The notes beneath the pieces were generated by a model. It was not told where the DNA came from. It did no database searches and saw nothing but the letters and a program-made list of their open reading frames with translations. Below are positions 13,008 to 47,294 of a DNA stretch of 56,751 bases, piece after piece (the stretch's first letter is position 1; every line of letters starts with the position of its first letter). Source of the DNA: a virus (lineage: Duplodnaviria; Heunggongvirae; Uroviricota; Caudoviricetes); IMG/VR virus record IMGVR_UViG_2778261162_000006, positions 1 to 56,751 of that record; one strand, given 5' to 3'. Made by a program: the position numbers and the translations under genes.

Positions 13008-13883
13008 TTAAGCCGGGGATGTTTCAGATTGAAGTGTTTTTTTCTTGGGCTCGTTCTTAGATGATTTTGTTTTCTTTTGACGATTGAGTTTTTTCTCTTT
13101 GCGTCTGTCAATATAATCGTCCCACCAATCAGGTTTTACTGTTGGGACGATTCTGCAAATATCAGCAATTGCAACAACAATGTTGCTCGATTGCACTCCA
13201 TCGACGTGCTCTGCCAGTGAGGGAGGAACTTGTTGGTTCATTGGATCGAGGATAAAATCCACACCCTTTATACGGGCATGTTTAGCGGCAGGAACGAAAT
13301 CAGCATCGCCAGCAATCAGGACGATCACATCAACTAGTTTCTCATGAGCAAGGATAGTTATATCCATACCAAGCTTAATATCGACGGCTTTTTGTTTATA
13401 TTCGTAGTAGAAATCGTCGTTAGTTAACTCAGACCATTGAATTTCATTACGTAATAGTTTCTTAAGAGTATGTTCTTTTATTTGCCAGTTACCGACGTTT
13501 GAAAGAATACCCATACGAAGTGCCGTTTTACGATTCTTCCTTAGCTCCTCATGAAGCTTGTTTCGTAAAACATTCGGAGCATGTGTCTTGAAGTTTTTAG
13601 TTGATGGGGTTTTGTTGTCTCCATCAGGCAAAGGATACTTAATCTGTTTATCAAGCGGCGGGCAGTCGTAATAGTAAATACGGTAAAGCTCAAGTGGTTC
13701 ACGGTCAGCGTGAGCACCATGTGGAACCTCTACATGAAATTTAACAATTCGCCAGATTATTTTAACAAGTTGTTGGCTGTCTAACTCATGCCCAGGGAAA
13801 TGTTTTCGTAGAAAGTAATCAATCCGACGGATGAAGTAGCCGCCGTCAATCAAGACTGCTGTTTTCTTCATTGAAAAACTCAC
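13008..13883 (-). CDS. NYN/PIN-like domain protein with Lys-rich C-terminal tail
   Basis: VIVLIAGDADFVPAAKHARIKG acidic motif typical of NYN/LabA-like nucleases; opposite orientation to flanking late genes. Confidence 0.65.
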   Translation of the reverse strand: MSFSMKKTAVLIDGGYFIRRIDYFLRKHFPGHELDSQQLVKIIWRIVKFHVEVPHGAHADREPLELYRIYYYDCPPLDKQIKYPLPDGDNKTPSTKNFKTHAPNVLRNKLHEELRKNRKTALRMGILSNVGNWQIKEHTLKKLLRNEIQWSELTNDDFYYEYKQKAVDIKLGMDITILAHEKLVDVIVLIAGDADFVPAAKHARIKGVDFILDPMNQQVPPSLAEHVDGVQSSNIVVAIADICRIVPTVKPDWWDDYIDRRKEKKLNRQKKTKSSKNEPKKKTLQSETSPA

Positions 13884-35598: not shown

Positions 35599-36255
35599 AT
35601 GCATCGTATAGACACGAAAACCGCGCAGAAGGATAAGTTCGGCGCGGGTAAGAACGGTTTTACCCGTGGTAATCCCCAGACTGGTACGCCTGCCACCGAT
35701 CTGGATGATGACTACTTTGACATGTTGCAGGAGGAGCTTTGCAGCGTGGTGGAGGCATCCGGTGCCAGCCTGGAGAAGGAGAGGCACGACCAGCTGCTTA
35801 CTGCGCTTCGTGCGCTGCTGTTAAGCCGCAAGAATCCGTTTAGTGATATCAAATCGGATGGCACGGTGAAAACAGCTCTCGAAAACCTTGGTTTGGGAGA
35901 AGCGGCAAAACGGAATGTAGGTAGCGGGCAAAACCAAATTCCGGATATGGCGGCGTTTGCCAGTTCACTTTCATCAACGGGTTTTCAAAAACTCCCTTCA
36001 GGTCTGATTATTCAGTGGGGTATTGTCAGTGGAGCATCAAACTATACGGTGACTTACCCGGTAACATTCCCAAATCGTTCACTTGCGCTGTTGGCTGTGC
36101 CACATACAACGTCGGTGGCTGGTATATCTGCAATGGGCATAGCGAACTGTTCTGATATCAGCAAATCACAGTTCTATATAATTGTTGGCGGTATATCTCA
36201 GGGAGAAATTGTCAAACATGAAAGGTCCTGTTTTTGGGTAGCAATCGGTGTATAG
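35599..36255 (+). CDS. Tail fibre protein (constant N-terminus plus variable C-terminus in current orientation)
   Basis: Segment [10 protein letters not shown] at the constant/variable junction coincides with the inversion crossover repeat. Confidence 0.75.
35876..35921. repeat. Inversion crossover site, left
   Basis: TCTCGAAAACCTTGGTTTGGGAGAAGCGGCAAAACGGAATGTAGG; inverted copy at 37429..37479. Confidence 0.7.
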
Positions 36256-36263
36256 GTATATCT

Positions 36264-36659
36264 ATGATTTATTTCTCAAAATCGACTAATGGTTTTTTCT
36301 TTGATGGTATAAACAGCGACATGCCTGCTGACATTGTTGAGATAAGTACAGACTTATACAATGAATTAATTGCCGGACAGCAGGAAGGGGGTAAATTAAT
36401 CACGTCAGATGAAAATGGTTTACCGGTACTGAAATCTCCGGCGATTGATTATGTCGCACGTGCTGAAAATCAGCGAATGCAGTTACTTGCTCATGCCGAT
36501 AATGTCACAGCTGACTGGCGGGTGGAATTAATGCTTGGTGATATCAGCAGTACAGATAAAGAAAAACTATCTGCCTGGATGGACTACAAAAAAGAAGTAA
36601 AAGCCGTCGACACTTCGACGGCTCCTGAGATTAGCTGGCCTGAACTGCCGGAGGCGTAG
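36264..36659 (+). CDS. Tail fibre assembly protein
   Basis: C-terminal ...DTSTAPEISWPELP motif; paralog encoded on the opposite strand. Confidence 0.75.
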   Translation: MIYFSKSTNGFFFDGINSDMPADIVEISTDLYNELIAGQQEGGKLITSDENGLPVLKSPAIDYVARAENQRMQLLAHADNVTADWRVELMLGDISSTDKEKLSAWMDYKKEVKAVDTSTAPEISWPELPEA

Positions 36660-37074
36660 GCCATTCAATATCTGGCGCACCGGAAGTATCGACCAGCTCC
36701 AGTGCGTCCAGATAATCCAGCCACAAATTATATTGCGCCAGTTCGTCACCTTTCAGACGACCAATAGCGGCTTTACCGGGCCATTGCTTACTGTTCATGT
36801 ATTCGTTGGCCAGGTTAATTAGTAGCTGTCTTTCTGATTCAGTAATTTCAATAAGCTCTTCGTGAGTAGGTGGAGGAATATCTGCCCACGCAGGTAGTCC
36901 ATCCTCTCCCGCAATACGGACTTTTCCTTGTGGCGGTTCAGCCATAAACTCACTGACAATATTTTGATTCACCTCCTTAGCATCTGATAAATCCCATCCC
37001 TCTGATTTATATTTATCAATCATATCCACAGGGAAAAAAGCATTATGCCTTGCGCTATAAACATATTCGTTCAT
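36631..37074 (-). CDS. Alternative tail fibre assembly protein (inverted orientation)
   Basis: Shares C-terminal motif ...DTSGAPDIEWPTPP with the plus-strand paralog. Confidence 0.75.
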   Translation of the reverse strand: MNEYVYSARHNAFFPVDMIDKYKSEGWDLSDAKEVNQNIVSEFMAEPPQGKVRIAGEDGLPAWADIPPPTHEELIEITESERQLLINLANEYMNSKQWPGKAAIGRLKGDELAQYNLWLDYLDALELVDTSGAPDIEWPTPPAVQAS

Positions 37075-37095
37075 ATTAAATCACCCTGAATAAAA

Positions 37096-37509
37096 TTACT
37101 CGCCAACAGCCCACCAACAGTAATTCATGGTAACAGTTGGACTTGTCGAGGTTGTTCTAAAGGCAGAATAAAACCCTGTTAACCCTGGCTCTTCAGTTGT
37201 CATCATAAAACCACGACCACTCCCGGCAGTTGAACCACCATCACCAGAATGTGAAAGCAAGGCAATATCAGCTTTTTTAGGGAAAGGTATATTAAATTCT
37301 ACCCGTAGTGTCTGACTCGCAAGCGTAGGAGACACACGCCCACGACCATATTGCAGGATTTTCCCGTTGGGTAATTTCATCCATCCATCACCACTGGCAA
37401 AAGAGGCCATGTCCGGTATCTGATTCGCCCCTGTCCCTACATTCCTTTTAGCCGCTTCTCCCAAACCAACGTTTATGAAAATGCAGAAATAACGAGCAAA
37501 TGGCATCAT
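37096..37509 (-). CDS. Alternative tail fibre C-terminal segment (silent until inversion)
   Basis: Encodes [24 protein letters not shown], homologous to the junction of the expressed fibre; the N-terminal residues of the ORF lie beyond the crossover and are not part of it. Confidence 0.7.
37429..37479. repeat. Inversion crossover site, right
   Basis: Reverse complement contains GGTTTGGGAGAAGCGGCTAAAAGGAATGTAGG. Confidence 0.7.
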
Positions 37510-37535
37510 TCCTGCTTTTGTCAGGGGGATCTACC

Positions 37536-38090
37536 ATGCTTATTGGCTATGTACGTGTGTCAACAAATGACCAGAACACAGATCTACAGCGTAATGCGCT
37601 GAACTGTGCAGGATGCGAGCTGATTTTTGAAGACAAGATAAGCGGTACAAAGTCCGAAAGGCCGGGACTGAAAAAACTGCTCAGGACATTATCGGCAGGT
37701 GACACTCTGGTTGTCTGGAAGCTGGATCGGCTGGGACGTAGTATGCGGCATCTGGTCATTCTGGTTGAGGAGTTGCGCGAACGTGGCGTTAATTTTCGCA
37801 GCCTGACGGATGCTATTGATACCAGCACACCGATGGGGCGTTTTTTCTTTCATGTGATGGGTGCCCTGGCTGAAATGGAACGAGAACTGATTGTTGAACG
37901 AACAAAAGCTGGACTGGAAGCTGCTCGCGCACAGGGACGAATTGGTGGACGTCGTCCCAAACTTACACCAGAACAATGGGCGCAGGCCGGGCGATTAATT
38001 GCATCAGGCGTTCCTCGCCAGAAGGTGGCTATTATCTATGATGTTGGTGTGTCAACTTTGTATAAGAGGTTTCCAGCCAGGGTTATATAA
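37536..38090 (+). CDS. Serine DNA invertase (Hin/Gin/Pin/Cin family)
   Basis: MLIGYVRVSTNDQ with catalytic Ser; resolvase domain plus C-terminal HTH; adjacent to invertible segment. Confidence 0.9.
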   Translation: MLIGYVRVSTNDQNTDLQRNALNCAGCELIFEDKISGTKSERPGLKKLLRTLSAGDTLVVWKLDRLGRSMRHLVILVEELRERGVNFRSLTDAIDTSTPMGRFFFHVMGALAEMERELIVERTKAGLEAARAQGRIGGRRPKLTPEQWAQAGRLIASGVPRQKVAIIYDVGVSTLYKRFPARVI

Positions 38091-38433: not shown

Positions 38434-38970
38434 TCAACTTTTAAACCATAAGTCATCTCGATAGAGTAGACTAATTTTCGTTGCATCTTTTGATGCTAGA
38501 GTCGTACACTCTCCTTTATCAAACTCATCTAGACTCACAAATGTAAATTCGTCACCATTTTTTTCTTTCGGAAACACCATAAAGACTACTTCGAAAGTAC
38601 AATCACTATACACATTTTTTAAGAATTGCTGAAGTGCTCTATACTTTCCTATTTCACAATCAGTAAGTGTAAAGGAGGTACACCCATCTGTTGAGTGATA
38701 CTTCGCATCTAAAAGAATATAAGAGGATTCGTCAGCGTCAATAATGAAATCGGGGCGTTTCCCCCCATATGATTTCAAGTTTGCAGATAAGGTATTTATT
38801 CCTTGCTCAACATGTTCAAATTTCCACTTGGATTTTTCCAGCCATCTACTAGCATATTTCTCACCATCTTGACCAGCCGTTATAGAGTATTGTTTTCTTA
38901 ATGCGCTGCACATTTCGTCTAAATTTAACATAAATTCCATGTTCCTTTTTTTTAGTATAATTATTAACAT
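38434..38970 (-). CDS. Small PD-(D/E)xK nuclease-like protein
   Basis: AT-rich; motif RPDFIIDADESSYILLDAKYH (PD ... D-A-K, 14-residue spacing). Confidence 0.6.
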   Translation of the reverse strand: MLIIILKKRNMEFMLNLDEMCSALRKQYSITAGQDGEKYASRWLEKSKWKFEHVEQGINTLSANLKSYGGKRPDFIIDADESSYILLDAKYHSTDGCTSFTLTDCEIGKYRALQQFLKNVYSDCTFEVVFMVFPKEKNGDEFTFVSLDEFDKGECTTLASKDATKISLLYRDDLWFKS

Positions 38971-39530: not shown

Positions 39531-42284
39531 CTATTTGATTGCTGCATTGATTCGTTTATATCTTTGGGTAAAGGCCTCTTTGCCACCTTCCATCACTCGG
39601 CATATCTCATCGCGTATGGAAGGTTCTTGAAGACCCCCTTGCGCCACAATTCTGGTTTGACCAGACCGAATATCAAGGGCAATGACGTTTTCCGCGTCAC
39701 CATTCACGACGATGTTAGCGTTGTGCGTGACTACTAAAACCTGCCGTTTTTGTTTGATCTCACGCAATTGCGTCACGATAAGATCATAGATTAAGTGGTT
39801 ATCAAGATCATCCTCAGGCTGATCAAGTATAAGAGGCTCATTGCCATATGAAAGGATAAATGCAAGGAGAGCCGCCGTTTTTTGCCCCGGAGATCCTTGC
39901 TCTACGGGTTTGAAACTCTCGCCGTTCTTGAGGCTATATCTGATATCCAGAGAATCGCCTGGAAACCAGCACTGAATTCGATCTATCTGTTCCGGAGTTA
40001 GCCCCTGAATGAGGGATACAAAACGTCGATCTTTGCAGGATTCCACCGCCATAGTATCGTTTTCATGGATTGCAAGTAGCGATGATTTTATTTTCTCAAT
40101 TTTATCATCCATAGTATTGGATTGGTCTTGCGTTAAATAAGCCAGCAAGCCCTCATCCCCGTCAACAACTCCAATGTCGCGGTCAAATCCGCCACCACTG
40201 CGGCCGATCAGGTTACGGAATTCTTCCTCAACCGTAATCTTGTTTCCAAACGGAATGACATTGATCTGTACATATGAATTGCCGACGAGAGTATCCTTGA
40301 GAAAGTCCTCACGAAGTTTGGTTATCAATGCTCGATGCTCATGGAGTTTGACCAAGTATTCTTCCGCGCTCTTCTGATGCTGCGCAAGAGTTTCTCTCTT
40401 TTTGTCGAATCCCTTGAGCTTATCTTCGAAATCTTGTCGCTGCTTAACCAGAACACCATATGCAGATGGATCACCTGCGTCTGCTGCGCTGAGTTGACCG
40501 AGGAGGGCGTTGTATTCATGGCTCGCCGCTGTAATTCTTTTCGATATTCCCAAGTCTGATCGAGTTTGATTCCATGAGTTCTTCACATCATCAATCCGCT
40601 GCGCGATCGAGTTCATCTCTGTCTGAAGCTTCTCAAACGTCGCACGGATGTCCTTGATGGTATCGAAGAGTTCTTTGTCATCCGCATTCCCAATGTCGAA
40701 ATATTGTAAATCCAATTCTGCTGGCAGTAGGCTTCCAGAAATATCTCGGACCTGTTCGGCGGAATCCTCCCAAGTCGTTACCCAGGAGTCCATAGCCTTA
40801 CTCTGGTTCTGTCTGAGTTGGTAAGCCTTAAGGACATCCGCGTGGCCCGCCTTTTCAAAAACATCGAGTTTGCGTTTGACGTCTTCAAGCTGACCTTTGG
40901 TTACCGATTCTTCCTGAAGCCCAGCCTGAACTTCACGCTCTTGGGCGCGAAGCGAGAGATATTTGGAAACCAGTTCATCCCACTTAAGCTGCCAATCACG
41001 ATGATTGACCTCCGGGGCATCATCGACAACCTGCAAGAGTGCTTGGGGATGCTTTGCCAATTCGAATATCTGTTTCTGGCTGTAAATCCTGACAGGAAAT
41101 CGTTGTGCTATGTCTCCCTCGGAATCACACCAGACTCCGGGAGCGGTCTCTTCCTCGATGCTGTATATGTCGTCGGTATTAGACCAGGTGATTCGGAAAC
41201 GGCCACCGTCTTTTCGAAAGCCTACAGTTATTTTCGTGGAATCTTTTAACAGCCCTTCATCTTGGCGGTCTTTCGAAGTTTGACTGTATTTGGTAAATTC
41301 CTTTTCAAGGCTCTTGGGGATTTCTCCCTTTCGTTTAAGAGCAATCCGCAGGAATTCCAACGAAGTCGATTTCCCAGTGCCTCGTCCACCAATGATAGTG
41401 TTGAGCCAGGGGTTCAGTTGACAAGTTAAAGATTGCCCTCGTCCTAAGTACTTCGCATCATCAACCACGATACTTTCGATGGCAAGTTGTCCATGGATAT
41501 TTGGGTCACCAGTGAAGTTGTCCGACCGCTTCAGTGAAAGAGCCCCATCAACGAGCGCCAGCCGTAATCCGTCATAAGATGGCTCCGACATTTTTACCCA
41601 AGTGAAATGGCTACCCGGGTAGCGTTGATTTCCGGTACCGGACGGATGATGGGAATCGGTTCCAAGAATCTCTGCCCAATTCAAATTCTTGCCAATATAG
41701 AGCTGCGGTTTTGCTTTAGCAAGGTCCGTTACCTCCATAGCAAAAACACATTTGTTGTCAAGCACCTGCTCTAGTGTGTTGCCCGTACAGACCGTAAAAA
41801 GTCCGCTAGCCTGATCTACATGAGCAGGTATTGCAAGTCCTCCTGACCTAGCAATTTCGTCGATCACCTCAACTGCTGAGCATTCAGAGCAGCCGTCGCT
41901 CTTTCCTTTGGTGCCGCGATACCTGACCGCACCAAGCAGTGAGTCGATATCAGAGGTTGTCTTGTCTTCGCCGAAAATGGCCAGAATATGGATATTCCCC
42001 TGAACAGTAAGCTCAACACCTGGGAATAAGTAGAGTGGTCGATAATCTTCATGACTCTCAGATGCCAGTTCCTTGAGTGCCTGCTTGAGCGGATCAATCC
42101 AAGCGCCTGAATTATGGTCCGTGACAGCGACACAATCGATGCCTTGTCGCATGTAGTTGAGCAGCCAATCTTTATGAGTGATCTGCATATACTGGGCCTG
42201 ATTAGGGCCTTTTCCATAATCGTCCGATGCCGGAGTGTGATTATGGAAGTCGAATTTCCACCACCGAGAACCAATCCAGTTCAT
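39531..42284 (-). CDS. PHP phosphoesterase fused to SMC/Rad50-like ABC ATPase with coiled-coil (Ppl-like defence protein candidate)
   Basis: N-terminal FDFHNHTPASDDYG, VAVTDHN, IPAHV, GTDSHH PHP motifs; Walker A GGRGTGKST; signature-like SPGQKTAALLA; Walker B LILDQPEDDLD; H-loop VLVVTHN; long E/K/Q-rich insert between Walker A and B. Confidence 0.75.
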   Translation of the reverse strand: MNWIGSRWWKFDFHNHTPASDDYGKGPNQAQYMQITHKDWLLNYMRQGIDCVAVTDHNSGAWIDPLKQALKELASESHEDYRPLYLFPGVELTVQGNIHILAIFGEDKTTSDIDSLLGAVRYRGTKGKSDGCSECSAVEVIDEIARSGGLAIPAHVDQASGLFTVCTGNTLEQVLDNKCVFAMEVTDLAKAKPQLYIGKNLNWAEILGTDSHHPSGTGNQRYPGSHFTWVKMSEPSYDGLRLALVDGALSLKRSDNFTGDPNIHGQLAIESIVVDDAKYLGRGQSLTCQLNPWLNTIIGGRGTGKSTSLEFLRIALKRKGEIPKSLEKEFTKYSQTSKDRQDEGLLKDSTKITVGFRKDGGRFRITWSNTDDIYSIEEETAPGVWCDSEGDIAQRFPVRIYSQKQIFELAKHPQALLQVVDDAPEVNHRDWQLKWDELVSKYLSLRAQEREVQAGLQEESVTKGQLEDVKRKLDVFEKAGHADVLKAYQLRQNQSKAMDSWVTTWEDSAEQVRDISGSLLPAELDLQYFDIGNADDKELFDTIKDIRATFEKLQTEMNSIAQRIDDVKNSWNQTRSDLGISKRITAASHEYNALLGQLSAADAGDPSAYGVLVKQRQDFEDKLKGFDKKRETLAQHQKSAEEYLVKLHEHRALITKLREDFLKDTLVGNSYVQINVIPFGNKITVEEEFRNLIGRSGGGFDRDIGVVDGDEGLLAYLTQDQSNTMDDKIEKIKSSLLAIHENDTMAVESCKDRRFVSLIQGLTPEQIDRIQCWFPGDSLDIRYSLKNGESFKPVEQGSPGQKTAALLAFILSYGNEPLILDQPEDDLDNHLIYDLIVTQLREIKQKRQVLVVTHNANIVVNGDAENVIALDIRSGQTRIVAQGGLQEPSIRDEICRVMEGGKEAFTQRYKRINAAIK

Positions 42285-42646: not shown

Positions 42647-42694
42647 ATTCGTAATGCGAAGGTCGTAGGTTCGACTCCTATTATCGGCACCATT
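42647..42694 (+). repeat. attR core (copy of tRNA-Thr 3' end); also the tRNA-proximal att of the downstream satellite
   Basis: Identical 48 bp to 1399..1446. Confidence 0.85.
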
Positions 42695-42858: not shown

Positions 42859-44073
42859 GTGAAACTCAATGCCCGTCAAATAGACACTGCCAAGCCAAAA
42901 GAGAAGGCTTACAAGCTGGCTGATGGTGGTGGTCTGTATCTCTTGGTAAAACCTAGTGGAGGAAAATATTGGCGCTTCAAGTATCGTGTAGCTGGTAAAG
43001 AGAAGCTGTTAGCACTAGGTGTGTATCCTGAAGTTACCTTGGCTGATGCTCGTGCAAAACGTGAAGAAGCTAAAAGGGGTATCGCTGGGGGTATCGATCC
43101 GATGGAAGCGAAACGAGAGGAAAAGATTGCCCGGGAAACGCAGTTAAACAACACCTTCAAAGATATTGCCCTTGAGTGGCACAGCAGCAAATTAAAAAAA
43201 TGGTCTGCTGGTTATGCTTCAGACATCCTCGAAGCCTTTAACAAAGATGTGTTCCCTTACATTGGCAAAAAACCAATCGCCGAAATCAAACCACTTGAAC
43301 TGCTGAATGTGCTGCGGCGCATCGAGGGGCGCGGTGCTACCGAAAAAGCCAAAAAAGTGAGGCAGCGATGTGGGGAAGTTTTCCGCTATGCAATTGTCAC
43401 TGGACGTGCTGAGTATAACCCTGCACCGGATCTCACCAGCGCGATGCAAGGTCATGAATCTAATCATTATCCTTTCCTCACAGCCAAAGAATTACCTGAT
43501 TTTTTCAAGGCATTGTCCAGTTACTCAGGAAGTGCATTGGTTGTTATGGCGGCTCGTTTACTGATTATCACCGGTTTGCGGACTGGCGAACTGCGCGGTG
43601 CATTATGGGATGAAATCGATCTCAACAAGGCTATCTGGGAGATACCTGCTTCACGGATGAAAATGCGTCGCCCTCATGTAGTGCCTTTGTCTGAGCAGGC
43701 TCTTTCGCTTATTGGGCAGATTAAAGAACTAACTGGCAATTATCCGCTTATGTTTCCCGGCCGTAATGATCCAAGGAAAACAATGAGCGAGGCTAGCATA
43801 AACCAAGTATTTAAACGCATCGGCTATAACGGAAAGGTTACTGGTCATGGCTTCCGGCACACTATGAGCACCATTTTGCATGAGCAGGGCTATAACACCG
43901 CGTGGATAGAGACACAGCTTGCGCACGTCGATAAAAACTCAATTCGTGGCACATACAACCATGCGCAATATCTGGATGGGCGGCGGGAAATGCTTCAGTG
44001 GTACGCTGATTATATGGATTCGCTCGAGCATGGCGGAAATGTGGTGCATGGTGAGTTCGGAAAATGCGGGTGA
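42859..44073 (+). CDS. P4-type tyrosine integrase
   Basis: 404 aa; GTG start after GGAGG; GHGFRHT and catalytic Tyr region; N-terminal arm-binding domain. Confidence 0.9.
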   Translation: MKLNARQIDTAKPKEKAYKLADGGGLYLLVKPSGGKYWRFKYRVAGKEKLLALGVYPEVTLADARAKREEAKRGIAGGIDPMEAKREEKIARETQLNNTFKDIALEWHSSKLKKWSAGYASDILEAFNKDVFPYIGKKPIAEIKPLELLNVLRRIEGRGATEKAKKVRQRCGEVFRYAIVTGRAEYNPAPDLTSAMQGHESNHYPFLTAKELPDFFKALSSYSGSALVVMAARLLIITGLRTGELRGALWDEIDLNKAIWEIPASRMKMRRPHVVPLSEQALSLIGQIKELTGNYPLMFPGRNDPRKTMSEASINQVFKRIGYNGKVTGHGFRHTMSTILHEQGYNTAWIETQLAHVDKNSIRGTYNHAQYLDGRREMLQWYADYMDSLEHGGNVVHGEFGKCG

Positions 44074-47274: not shown

Positions 47275-47294
47275 GTGCATTCTCCTAAACAAAA

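Follow-up and report, generated by a model that had tools for sequence, protein, structure and literature searches.

A probable Pin-type tail-fibre inversion switch in an apparently complete SfV-like prophage at thrW

The inversion switches Pin/e14, Gin/Mu and Cin/P1 entered the textbooks in the 1980s. Cin of phage P1 and Min of plasmid p15B are serine invertases of the same family that flip tail-fibre C-termini, and cassettes of this kind are exchanged between elements. Cin is cited in PMC3798978 and PMC12529663. Here we describe a locus in a window of 56,751 nt, the whole stretch of DNA that was analysed. The locus is very probably a site-specific inversion switch with two states, of the same type as Pin and the e14 P segment, and it lies at the tail-module end of an apparently complete SfV-like prophage at thrW. 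By inverting a 1.58-kb segment, a small recombinase would set which of two alternative fibre tips the prophage makes, and this switch is almost certainly active. This type of switch has been known for a long time, and the present copy is intact but ordinary. Because enzyme and sites are the same as in the textbook Pin/e14 switch, its discovery value is small. It has other uses. For annotation, the two segment states give different fibre proteins. For assembly, the repeats at the segment lead to orientation heterogeneity. For phage biology, public data hold this element in both orientations between identical flanks, which makes it a clean example from nature.

The likeness to e14 extends to gene order. 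Both loci read ymfQ, Sc (the constant fibre part), Sv (a variable fibre C-terminus), tfa (an assembly gene), the convergent tfa' and Sv', pin and a defence cargo gene. The e14 P segment is arranged as stfP-tfaP / tfaE-stfE, and the convergent tfa genes overlap by 29 bp both in e14 and here. However, e14 is a 15-kb remnant, whereas the prophage described here is 41 kb long and looks complete. The variable cassettes differ, the e14 segment measures 1827 bp by site centres (it is usually described as 1.8 kb) against 1580 bp here, and the cargo gene after pin is mcrA in e14 and Ppl here.

The G segment of Mu, which is flipped by Gin, follows the same plan: a constant Sc is joined to an alternative Sv or Sv', each of which is followed by an assembly gene (S/U versus S'/U'), and the invertase gene adjoins the segment. 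The Mu segment is about 3 kb with fibres of about 500 aa, whereas the fibre here is 218 or 220 aa and has a Gp53-like tip. Host-range switching has been demonstrated in Mu, whereas here it is a prediction. Min of p15B carries out multiple inversion with many permutations, whereas the present locus has two states. The H segment of Salmonella shares the enzyme family and 26-bp sites with a 2-bp core, and the hin gene carries its Fis enhancer near the 5' end (PMC3798978). However, Hin flips a promoter and sits inside its own segment, while here coding sequence is swapped and pin is outside the segment.

The same Sv/tfa/tfa'/Sv' segment, with the same segment-side half of the site, is found in P2-like Escherichia coli prophages (Combat13F7, O157:H7 AC-3 and AC-5). 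The Combat13F7 segment has 6 mismatches in 1580 nt to the window. The constant fibre part of these P2-like carriers has no relation to Sc and is far longer; the whole fibres have 471/473 and 397/399 aa and are in frame in both states. Their invertase gene is only about 79% identical at the DNA level, and the tail backbone differs. A frameshift in the flipped P2-like fibre, which is annotated as a pseudogene, was ruled out by translation, which gave intact 473- and 399-aa ORFs. Automatic pipelines sometimes call such flipped fibre genes pseudogenes despite the intact frame.

Prophage context and fibre cassettes

The prophage carries genes for terminase, portal, capsid, sheath, tape measure, baseplate, repressor and lysin. 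The baseplate genes upstream of the fibre are Mu-like (Gp45, 46, 47, 48), and the defence cargo gene Ppl adjoins the switch after pin. The attachment sites and the features of the segment are as follows.

1399-1446 and 42647-42694: attL and attR, a 48-bp repeat
35599..35888, + strand: Sc, constant tail-fibre part of about 97 codons, outside the segment (ORF 35599..36255)
35889..37468: invertible segment, 1580 bp, bounded by the two site centres
35889..36255, + strand: Sv, variable fibre C-terminus, now joined to Sc to give a 218-aa fibre (Gp53-like_C, E 7.9e-15)
36264..36659, + strand: tfa, assembly gene cognate to Sv, 131 aa (Caudo_TAP, E 1.8e-24)
36599..36626, - strand: terminator-like hairpin by consensus match only, just downstream of tfa' and inside the tfa coding sequence, with a 12-bp stem and a T run
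36631..37074, - strand: tfa', alternative assembly gene, 147 aa (Caudo_TAP, E 2.1e-29)
37096..37468, - strand: Sv', alternative fibre C-terminus, now unjoined to Sc (Gp53-like_C, E 1.7e-09)

The sequence-only reading of this DNA had described a segment of about 1.6 kb flanked by inverted repeats, in agreement with the 1580 bp measured here. It had further proposed that the segment holds two alternative fibre C-termini with their assembly proteins on opposite strands, and the domain matches bear this out, with two Gp53-like_C and two Caudo_TAP domains in convergent arrangement. The tfa and tfa' products are 27% identical. The G+C content falls from 0.56 to 0.45 on entry into the segment. Outside it, the N-terminal 97 aa encoded by Sc are nearly identical to K-12 e14 StfP, and the DNA is 94% identical to SfV orf21. 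We found that flipping 35889..37468 in silico gives an in-frame 220-aa Sc-Sv' fibre, and the 218-aa Sc-Sv frame is also open. The Sv and Sv' tips have about the first 25 residues in common and diverge thereafter.

Near-identical copies of Sv plus tfa occur in the isolated phages vB_EcoM-613R3 (97.5%) and Cartapus (97.2%). When the whole 2.7-kb region was compared with complete E. coli genomes, no record covered at least 80% of it, and where complete genomes have the same pin and cargo genes, the cassettes are different ones. The present combination of backbone and cassette is absent from the complete E. coli genome collection searched.

Recombination sites, invertase and enhancer

The sites and the invertase gene lie at the following positions.

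35876..35901, + strand: left 26-bp site of the pix/gix/hix type, with the central TT at 35888-35889, identical to the left e14 site of K-12
37456..37481, - strand: right 26-bp site, with the central AA of the + strand at 37468-37469, identical to the pin-proximal e14 site
35883-35964 and 37393-37474: arms of the inverted repeat, 82 nt, 80% complementary, with 1428 nt between them
37536..38090, + strand: pin, serine DNA invertase of the Hin/Gin/Cin/Pin family, 184 aa (Resolvase, E 8.5e-52; HTH_7, E 1.5e-13)
37557..37620, + strand: presumed enhancer of recombination near the start of pin, with two Fis sites

The left site reads CTCTCGAAAACCTTGGTTTGGGAGAA, and the right site, read on the minus strand, is TTTTCATAAACGTTGGTTTGGGAGAA. 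The two are inversely oriented, with the central TT in both when they are read towards the segment. Base for base, they are the sites of the e14 P segment, and they are common to 18 loci. The 14-nt half common to both sites, TTGGTTTGGGAGAA, has exactly two occurrences in the 56.7-kb window, one inverted relative to the other. When up to 2 mismatches were tolerated, the window gave 3 matches against 0.36 expected, and 0 of 100 shuffles reached 3. Thus, the occurrences of this half-site are not due to chance. The third match, a weak one with 2 mismatches at 47280-47293, was rejected as a third site and attributed to chance; it lies outside the prophage, beyond attR. There are exactly two sites in the window and, therefore, two states rather than the many permutations of Min.

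Inverted repeats had been reported from the sequence with coordinates that are nearly right. However, the right arm, which had been placed at 37429..37479, ends 2 nt before the outer end of the site. The two tips begin with some 25 shared residues, and this is why the repeat reaches into the segment. The repeats had also been said to fall exactly at the junction of the constant and variable fibre parts. The left site is inside the fibre gene, and the protein motif quoted for the junction is encoded within the segment, at both ends. The crossover is at the Leu-Gly codons, with ENL on its constant side, between 35888 and 35889. Therefore, the quoted motif is the conserved start of each variable part and not the end of the constant part.

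The proposal that a Hin/Gin-family invertase is encoded at 37536..38090 was confirmed: the gene is full length, with both the Resolvase and HTH_7 domains. The protein is identical to E. coli K-12 PinE, whose activity has been shown experimentally, at 175 of 181 positions (97%) and aligns with the Gin structures 3uj3 and 4m6f across residues 1-182 (E 6e-94). The last residue of its MLIGYVRVS9 start is aligned with Gin Ser9 in 4m6f, and the residues read from the alignment are Ser9, Arg42, Lys46, Lys47, Arg50, Gln150, Arg153 and Leu154, at positions that PMC3798978 gives as conserved among Fis/enhancer-dependent invertases. Contact residues for Fis and the enhancer that separate invertases from resolvases are, in Hin, K47, K/R48, K/R51, Q151, R154 and L155 (PMC3798978). 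Pin has these invertase-specific residues as K46, K47, R50, Q150, R153 and L154, its numbering being that of Hin minus one, as in Gin.

We expect the switch to depend on Fis through an enhancer in the 5' end of pin. The location given above follows Kahmann 1985 and Johnson & Simon 1985, as these are cited in PMC3798978. A weak motif scan gave two candidate G-N13-C 15-mers, at nt 22-36 and 71-85 of pin, that are conserved with Mu gin and the P2-like invertase genes. By this simple scan (G-N13-C, AT-rich, Y-R), 49 bp separate the two centres, against the canonical 48 bp. The first 120 nt of pin are 95-98% identical to e14 pinE.

Segment orientation in public assemblies

The exact 218-aa protein of the as-is state and the exact 220-aa protein of the flipped state are both present in public E. 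coli assemblies. One locus, L026, is 100% identical to the window across 12.4 kb. Flipped contigs were reached via the tfa' protein; L024 and L031 matched the in-silico flipped sequence without a mismatch across the segment and with 5 substitutions in its flanks. L031 (SRR19512684) and L021 (SRR19512847), from two sequencing runs, carry the same prophage and are identical over 7,096 nt save for the precise inversion. The flipped state is also seen in a contig that spans the locus in full, cargo genes included. Across complete E. coli genomes, the cassette pair beside an invertase lies as-is in 14 and flipped in 18. Homologous cassettes behave in the same way: over 8 kb, a precise inversion is all that separates O157:H7 AC-3 from AC-5, and the same holds for the Combat13F7 chromosome and its 45-kb record. 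The breakpoints of the natural inversions fall within the left site and can be placed no more precisely than within an identical stretch of 18-19 nt that includes the core. Such differences in orientation from one assembly to another show that the lineage undergoes inversion. The sequence-only reading had named a single orientation and an inactive or truncated invertase as what would speak against a switch; we found both orientations in public assemblies and a full-length Pin.

Could the locus nevertheless be a static fossil, with tips left from past recombination and no inversion in the strain now, through low pin expression or a lack of enhancer function? The window holds a single orientation, the Fis sites are candidates with centres 49 bp apart rather than positive identifications, and several related loci (L004, L006, L007 and L017) have truncated invertase genes or decayed tips. 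However, the near-identity of an uninterrupted Pin to PinE, the perfect sites, the two intact reading frames and the identical element in both orientations in closely related assemblies with nothing else changed make this very unlikely. We also considered that the inversion is real but is made by RecA through homologous recombination across the 82-nt repeat. The repeat runs about 60 nt past the 26-bp site, and the resolution of the breakpoints is compatible with such an exchange. However, perfect identity runs for only about 20 nt at its longest, a poor RecA substrate, and the near 50:50 orientation across genomes is what is expected of a frequent, enzyme-driven flip. The e14 segment has no homology beyond the site and yet inverts; it does so at TTGGTTTGGGAGAAGG in a Pin-dependent way, with about 30% of a wild-type culture in the inverted state and with the segment locked in pinE and pinE pinQ mutants (PMC12529663). 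An origin by RecA is thus extremely unlikely. Pin, rather than another invertase acting in trans, probably does the flipping in the present strain.

Predicted outputs of the switch

In the mechanism that we propose, Pin dimers would bind the two 26-bp sites, 35876-35901 and 37456-37481, and, as in other members of the family, would synapse on a Fis-bound enhancer within the 5' end of pin. Cleavage at the central TT/AA dinucleotide, rotation and religation would then invert 35889..37468. With the left site inside the fibre gene, the 97-codon N-terminus, the putative baseplate-attachment part, would be joined to Sv or to Sv'. The 218-aa Sc-Sv fibre, followed by the chaperone gene tfa, would come from the orientation in the window, and the 220-aa Sc-Sv' fibre, with tfa' behind it, from the inverted one. 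Virions released by a given lysogen lineage would thus bear one or the other receptor-binding tip, a bet-hedging host-range switch like Mu G and P1 C. The analogy with these two, together with the divergence of the tips after about 25 shared residues, suggests that inversion changes host range, and the two tips probably bind different receptors.

The tip on the pin side may also be translated in its own right, from the following feature.

37469..37509, - strand: short leader outside the segment with the predicted start codon for the pin-side tip (ORF 37096..37509)

An in-frame Met-Met leader was present in 18 of the 18 loci examined, including those in P2-like prophages. This led us to consider that the switch serves the host: started from the leader, the pin-side tip would be a free, truncated, receptor-masking decoy that blocks other phages, as has been claimed of e14 StfE2 and T2, and inversion would alter which decoy is made. 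In favour of this reading, the leader is kept in frame even in P2-like prophages where it differs at several residues, gene callers annotate 134- to 137-aa products in both orientations, and the defence cargo gene Ppl lies beside the switch. In e14, inversion of the P segment is reported to create StfE2, which lowers T2 adsorption; the physiological role of PinE and of this inversion has been called unclear, with an anti-phage role proposed instead (PMC12529663). However, the e14 evidence leans largely on overexpression and docking, and here a tip joined to the leader results from either orientation, whereas e14 was described as switching on and off. The leader overlaps the upstream region of pin, so its conservation could reflect pin regulation. 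Our promoter scan found sites no more numerous than in shuffles and nothing promoter-like upstream of the leader ORF. The prophage looks complete, and therefore a role in the virion is the simpler reading; that the switch exists for the host's defence is unlikely.

Under the virion reading, the leader could still provide a second output, with the pin-side tip made as a free receptor-masking domain for superinfection exclusion, as claimed for e14 StfE2. We regard this addition as unlikely. If it were true, one flip would change both the virion tip and the lysogen decoy. The element could serve to test whether short Gp53-like tips change host range or act as receptor decoys.

The 1.58-kb cassette travels as a unit from one prophage type to the other, SfV-like or P2-like, and its breakpoints are those of the recombination sites. 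If the second output were real, this movement would spread both functions.

Anatomy of the fibre switch

The fibre switch is located at the right-hand end of a 41-kb prophage. The sequence-only reading had described a Hin/Gin-family invertase beside a segment with inverted repeats, and two alternative fibre C-termini whose assembly proteins are encoded on opposite strands. We confirmed both parts of this description through the following features.

35599..36255 (+), fibre gene, 218 aa, with a Gp53-like_C tip
36264..36659 (+), assembly gene following the fibre gene, Caudo_TAP
37074..36631 (-), second assembly gene, Caudo_TAP
from 37509/37468 down to 37096 (-), second Gp53-like_C coding region
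37536..38090, invertase gene (pin), 184 aa, Resolvase and HTH_7
35876-35901, left 26-bp site, CTCTCGAAAACCTTGGTTTGGGAGAA, from the arm alignment
37481-37456 (minus strand), right 26-bp site, TTTTCATAAACGTTGGTTTGGGAGAA, from the arm alignment

A repeat finder delimited inverted arms of 82 nt at 35883-35964 and 37393-37474 that are 80% complementary. Within them, the two 26-bp sites have their segment-side 14 nt and a central TT in common. An exact search of the window finds the shared 14-mer at just these two places; when 2 mismatches are tolerated the number of matches rises to 3, compared with an expectation of 0.36, and no shuffle gave as many. The site alignment and the central TT thus place the crossover points between 35888 and 35889 and between 37468 and 37469, giving a segment of 1580 bp. 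The codons at the crossover read ...E-N-L and are followed by the variable part. Therefore, while the repeats do fall at the constant/variable junction, as had been proposed, the motif quoted with them is where each variable part begins, a conserved stretch found at both segment ends, and not the end of the constant part.

The two tips have about 25 residues in common and then diverge, with a sole alignable stretch of 36/75 identities, and the two chaperones (the Caudo_TAP products) are 27% identical to each other. The two assembly genes converge and share 29 bp (36631-36659), as do tfaP and tfaE in the K-12 cryptic prophage e14. A terminator-like hairpin with a 12-bp stem (36599-36626) is placed for the minus-strand assembly gene, within the coding sequence of the plus-strand gene; no plus-strand counterpart to it was found.

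Both orientations occur in nature

Reverse-complementing 35889..37468 in silico brought the 97 constant codons into frame with the second tip, yielding a 220-aa protein. By exact-sequence look-up, both the 218-aa and the predicted 220-aa proteins are present in public E. coli assemblies. We then compared contigs obtained through the window's own proteins. One (L026) was 100% identical to the window across 12.4 kb. The same prophage is on two others: L024, of 12.4 kb, in which the downstream cargo genes are also the same, and L031, whose contig stops inside pin. The segments of both matched the in-silico flip with 0 mismatches, and their flanks had only five substitutions. Between L031 (SRR19512684) and L021 (SRR19512847), inversion was the sole difference in 7,096 nt, with 0 mismatches once reverse-complemented; the breakpoints fall inside TTGGTTTGGGAGAAGCGGC, a stretch containing the predicted core. 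Homologous cassettes in P2-like prophages gave a similar picture: those of O157:H7 AC-3 and AC-5 were identical over 8 kb except for a precise inversion, and the same was true of the Combat13F7 chromosome and its 45-kb record. Among complete E. coli genomes with the cassette and invertase, 14 had the window orientation and 18 the flipped one. Thus, both states occur naturally with breakpoints at the sites, and the products are in frame in either state. With two orientations found rather than one, and an intact rather than truncated invertase, the original observation holds and its interpretation as an inversion switch is supported.

The Combat13F7 records (NZ_CP019245.1 and NZ_CP019246.1, the latter pCombat13F7-1, a 45,156-bp circular 'plasmid') belong to one assembly that contains the P2-like prophage region twice, with the fibre segment in opposite orientations. 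The duplication could reflect either an excised phage genome or a mixed population that was assembled into two records. RefSeq splits the flipped P2-like fibre (L009 1964-3385, L010 2186-3385) into a pseudogene truncated at the C-terminus and a distinct gp53-like ORF. However, translation gave a single intact frame of 473 aa (L009) or 399 aa (L010), and the pseudogene call is an artefact that arises when phase-variable genes are annotated.

The Pin system and alternative explanations

The window invertase is identical to K-12 PinE, its e14 counterpart, at 175/181 residues, and its alignment with Gin crystal-structure sequences runs over the full length (E 6e-94). Ser9 and Arg42 are present, as are the basic residues of helix B (K46, K47, R50) and Q150, R153 and L154, six positions conserved in Fis/enhancer-dependent invertases, unlike resolvases (PMC3798978). 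The 26-bp sites flanking the e14 P segment (MG1655) are base-for-base identical to the window's two, both of which contain TTGGTTTGGGAGAAGG, the repeat to which e14 inversion was mapped (PMC12529663). In its constant part, the fibre is nearly identical to e14 StfP. The PinE-like enzyme, e14-identical sites and StfP-like constant part therefore make this a member of the Pin/P-segment system. The Pin-type fibre switch is a system already known and has the same logic as Mu G/Gin; whereas e14 is a remnant, the window's system resides in an intact prophage.

The best candidate Fis sites are two G-N13-C 15-mers at pin nt 22-36 and 71-85, with centres 49 bp apart. Both are kept in Mu gin and in P2-like invertase genes, and e14 pinE is 95-98% identical to the window across this candidate enhancer region. 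By analogy with related invertases, Pin dimers seated on both sites would be brought together in a synapse at an enhancer that Fis occupies in the 5' part of pin; after cleavage at the central dinucleotide, strands would be exchanged by subunit rotation (PMC3798978). Near the switch, only four substitutions (37556, 37559, 37589, 37638) separate the window from flipped or as-is siblings. All fall within pin nt 1-103, where the enhancer would be expected; at the first three (pin nt 21, 24, 54) the siblings carry the e14 pinE base and the protein is unchanged.

The intact parts and the flipped siblings contradict the idea of a static segment left from a former switch. Inversion driven by RecA is unlikely: the identical stretch is only ~20 nt, e14 inverts despite having no homology beyond the site, and the e14 segment is locked in pinE and pinE pinQ mutants (PMC12529663). 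We also considered whether the tip parked beside pin could act in host defence as a decoy, like e14 StfE2. A short leader ORF outside the segment (37469-37509, -) does place a Met-Met start before the pin-proximal tip in 18/18 loci, P2-like ones included, and would give that tip its own start codon. However, no promoter-like site was found for this ORF, it overlaps the pin upstream region, and the prophage appears complete, which makes a virion role more parsimonious. We consider the decoy role improbable. As for a virion role, the precedents of Mu and P1 and the divergence of the tips suggest that the two tips would give different host ranges; the role of e14 P inversion has been described as unclear (PMC12529663).

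Cassette exchange and prophage context

The window segment (35889-37468) differs from that of the P2-like Combat13F7 prophage (L003 3013-4592) by 6 mismatches in 1580 nt, but the flanks are unrelated from 4 nt left and 8 nt right of the crossover points, and the adjoining invertase gene has ~79% identity to pin. Conversely, the same pin and cargo genes were present at 99.1-99.8% in 13 complete genomes, and 6/6 loci fetched from these had cassettes differing from the window's. In E. coli WP4-S18-ESBL-08, MINF_2E, APEC O78, TUM9754, CH4790 and 2196 (L014-L019), the same pin, 165-aa and Ppl genes occur at 99.5-99.8% but the invertible segments differ, at 1853-2109 bp; in some of them the tips are decayed or tfa genes are split. 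An identical second assembly protein also lies behind a third fibre backbone (L023, L029). Near-identical cassettes with unrelated flanks, and the same pin with other cassettes, indicate exchange of the cassette as a unit at the recombination sites, in agreement with the long-standing view of tail-fibre mosaicism. In the case of Combat13F7, the transfer was between tail backbones that are unrelated, with its limits precisely at the sites.

The window opens with a 417-aa chromosomal gene that we take, from its context, to be proA. A tRNA gene follows it.

1369-1444, tRNA-Thr
1399-1446 and 42647-42694, 48-bp direct repeat, the first copy in the tRNA-Thr 3' part
1459-2622, prophage integrase

The 48-bp repeats are attL and attR of the 41-kb element. 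Its genes include a CI-like repressor, methylase, lysin, large terminase, portal, major head, sheath, tape measure and baseplate hub, with a Mu-like baseplate set (Gp45, Gp46, Baseplate_J, Gp48) directly 5' of the fibre gene. The baseplate/fibre junction DNA is 94% identical in Shigella phage SfV, which, unlike the window, is without an invertase at the corresponding position. A 291-aa NYN-domain gene (13008-13883, -), possibly a moron, lies on the other strand from its neighbours, in a patch where G+C is low (0.41), at the early/late junction. A second tyrosine integrase gene (404 aa, 42859-44073) starts 165 bp past attR, suggesting that another island follows in tandem at this tRNA site.

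Between pin and attR lies the gene for a 917-aa protein (39531-42284, -) whose match to the PADLOC defence model for Ppl spans the whole length (E 2.3e-157); RefSeq names it a TrlF family AAA-like ATPase. The adjoining 178-aa ORF (38434-38970, -) had no match in Pfam or PADLOC. In e14, mcrA fills the position held here by the Ppl cargo, and other relatives have a GIY-YIG or DUF262 gene after pin. With such differing cargo, the slot looks like a defence-cargo hotspot.
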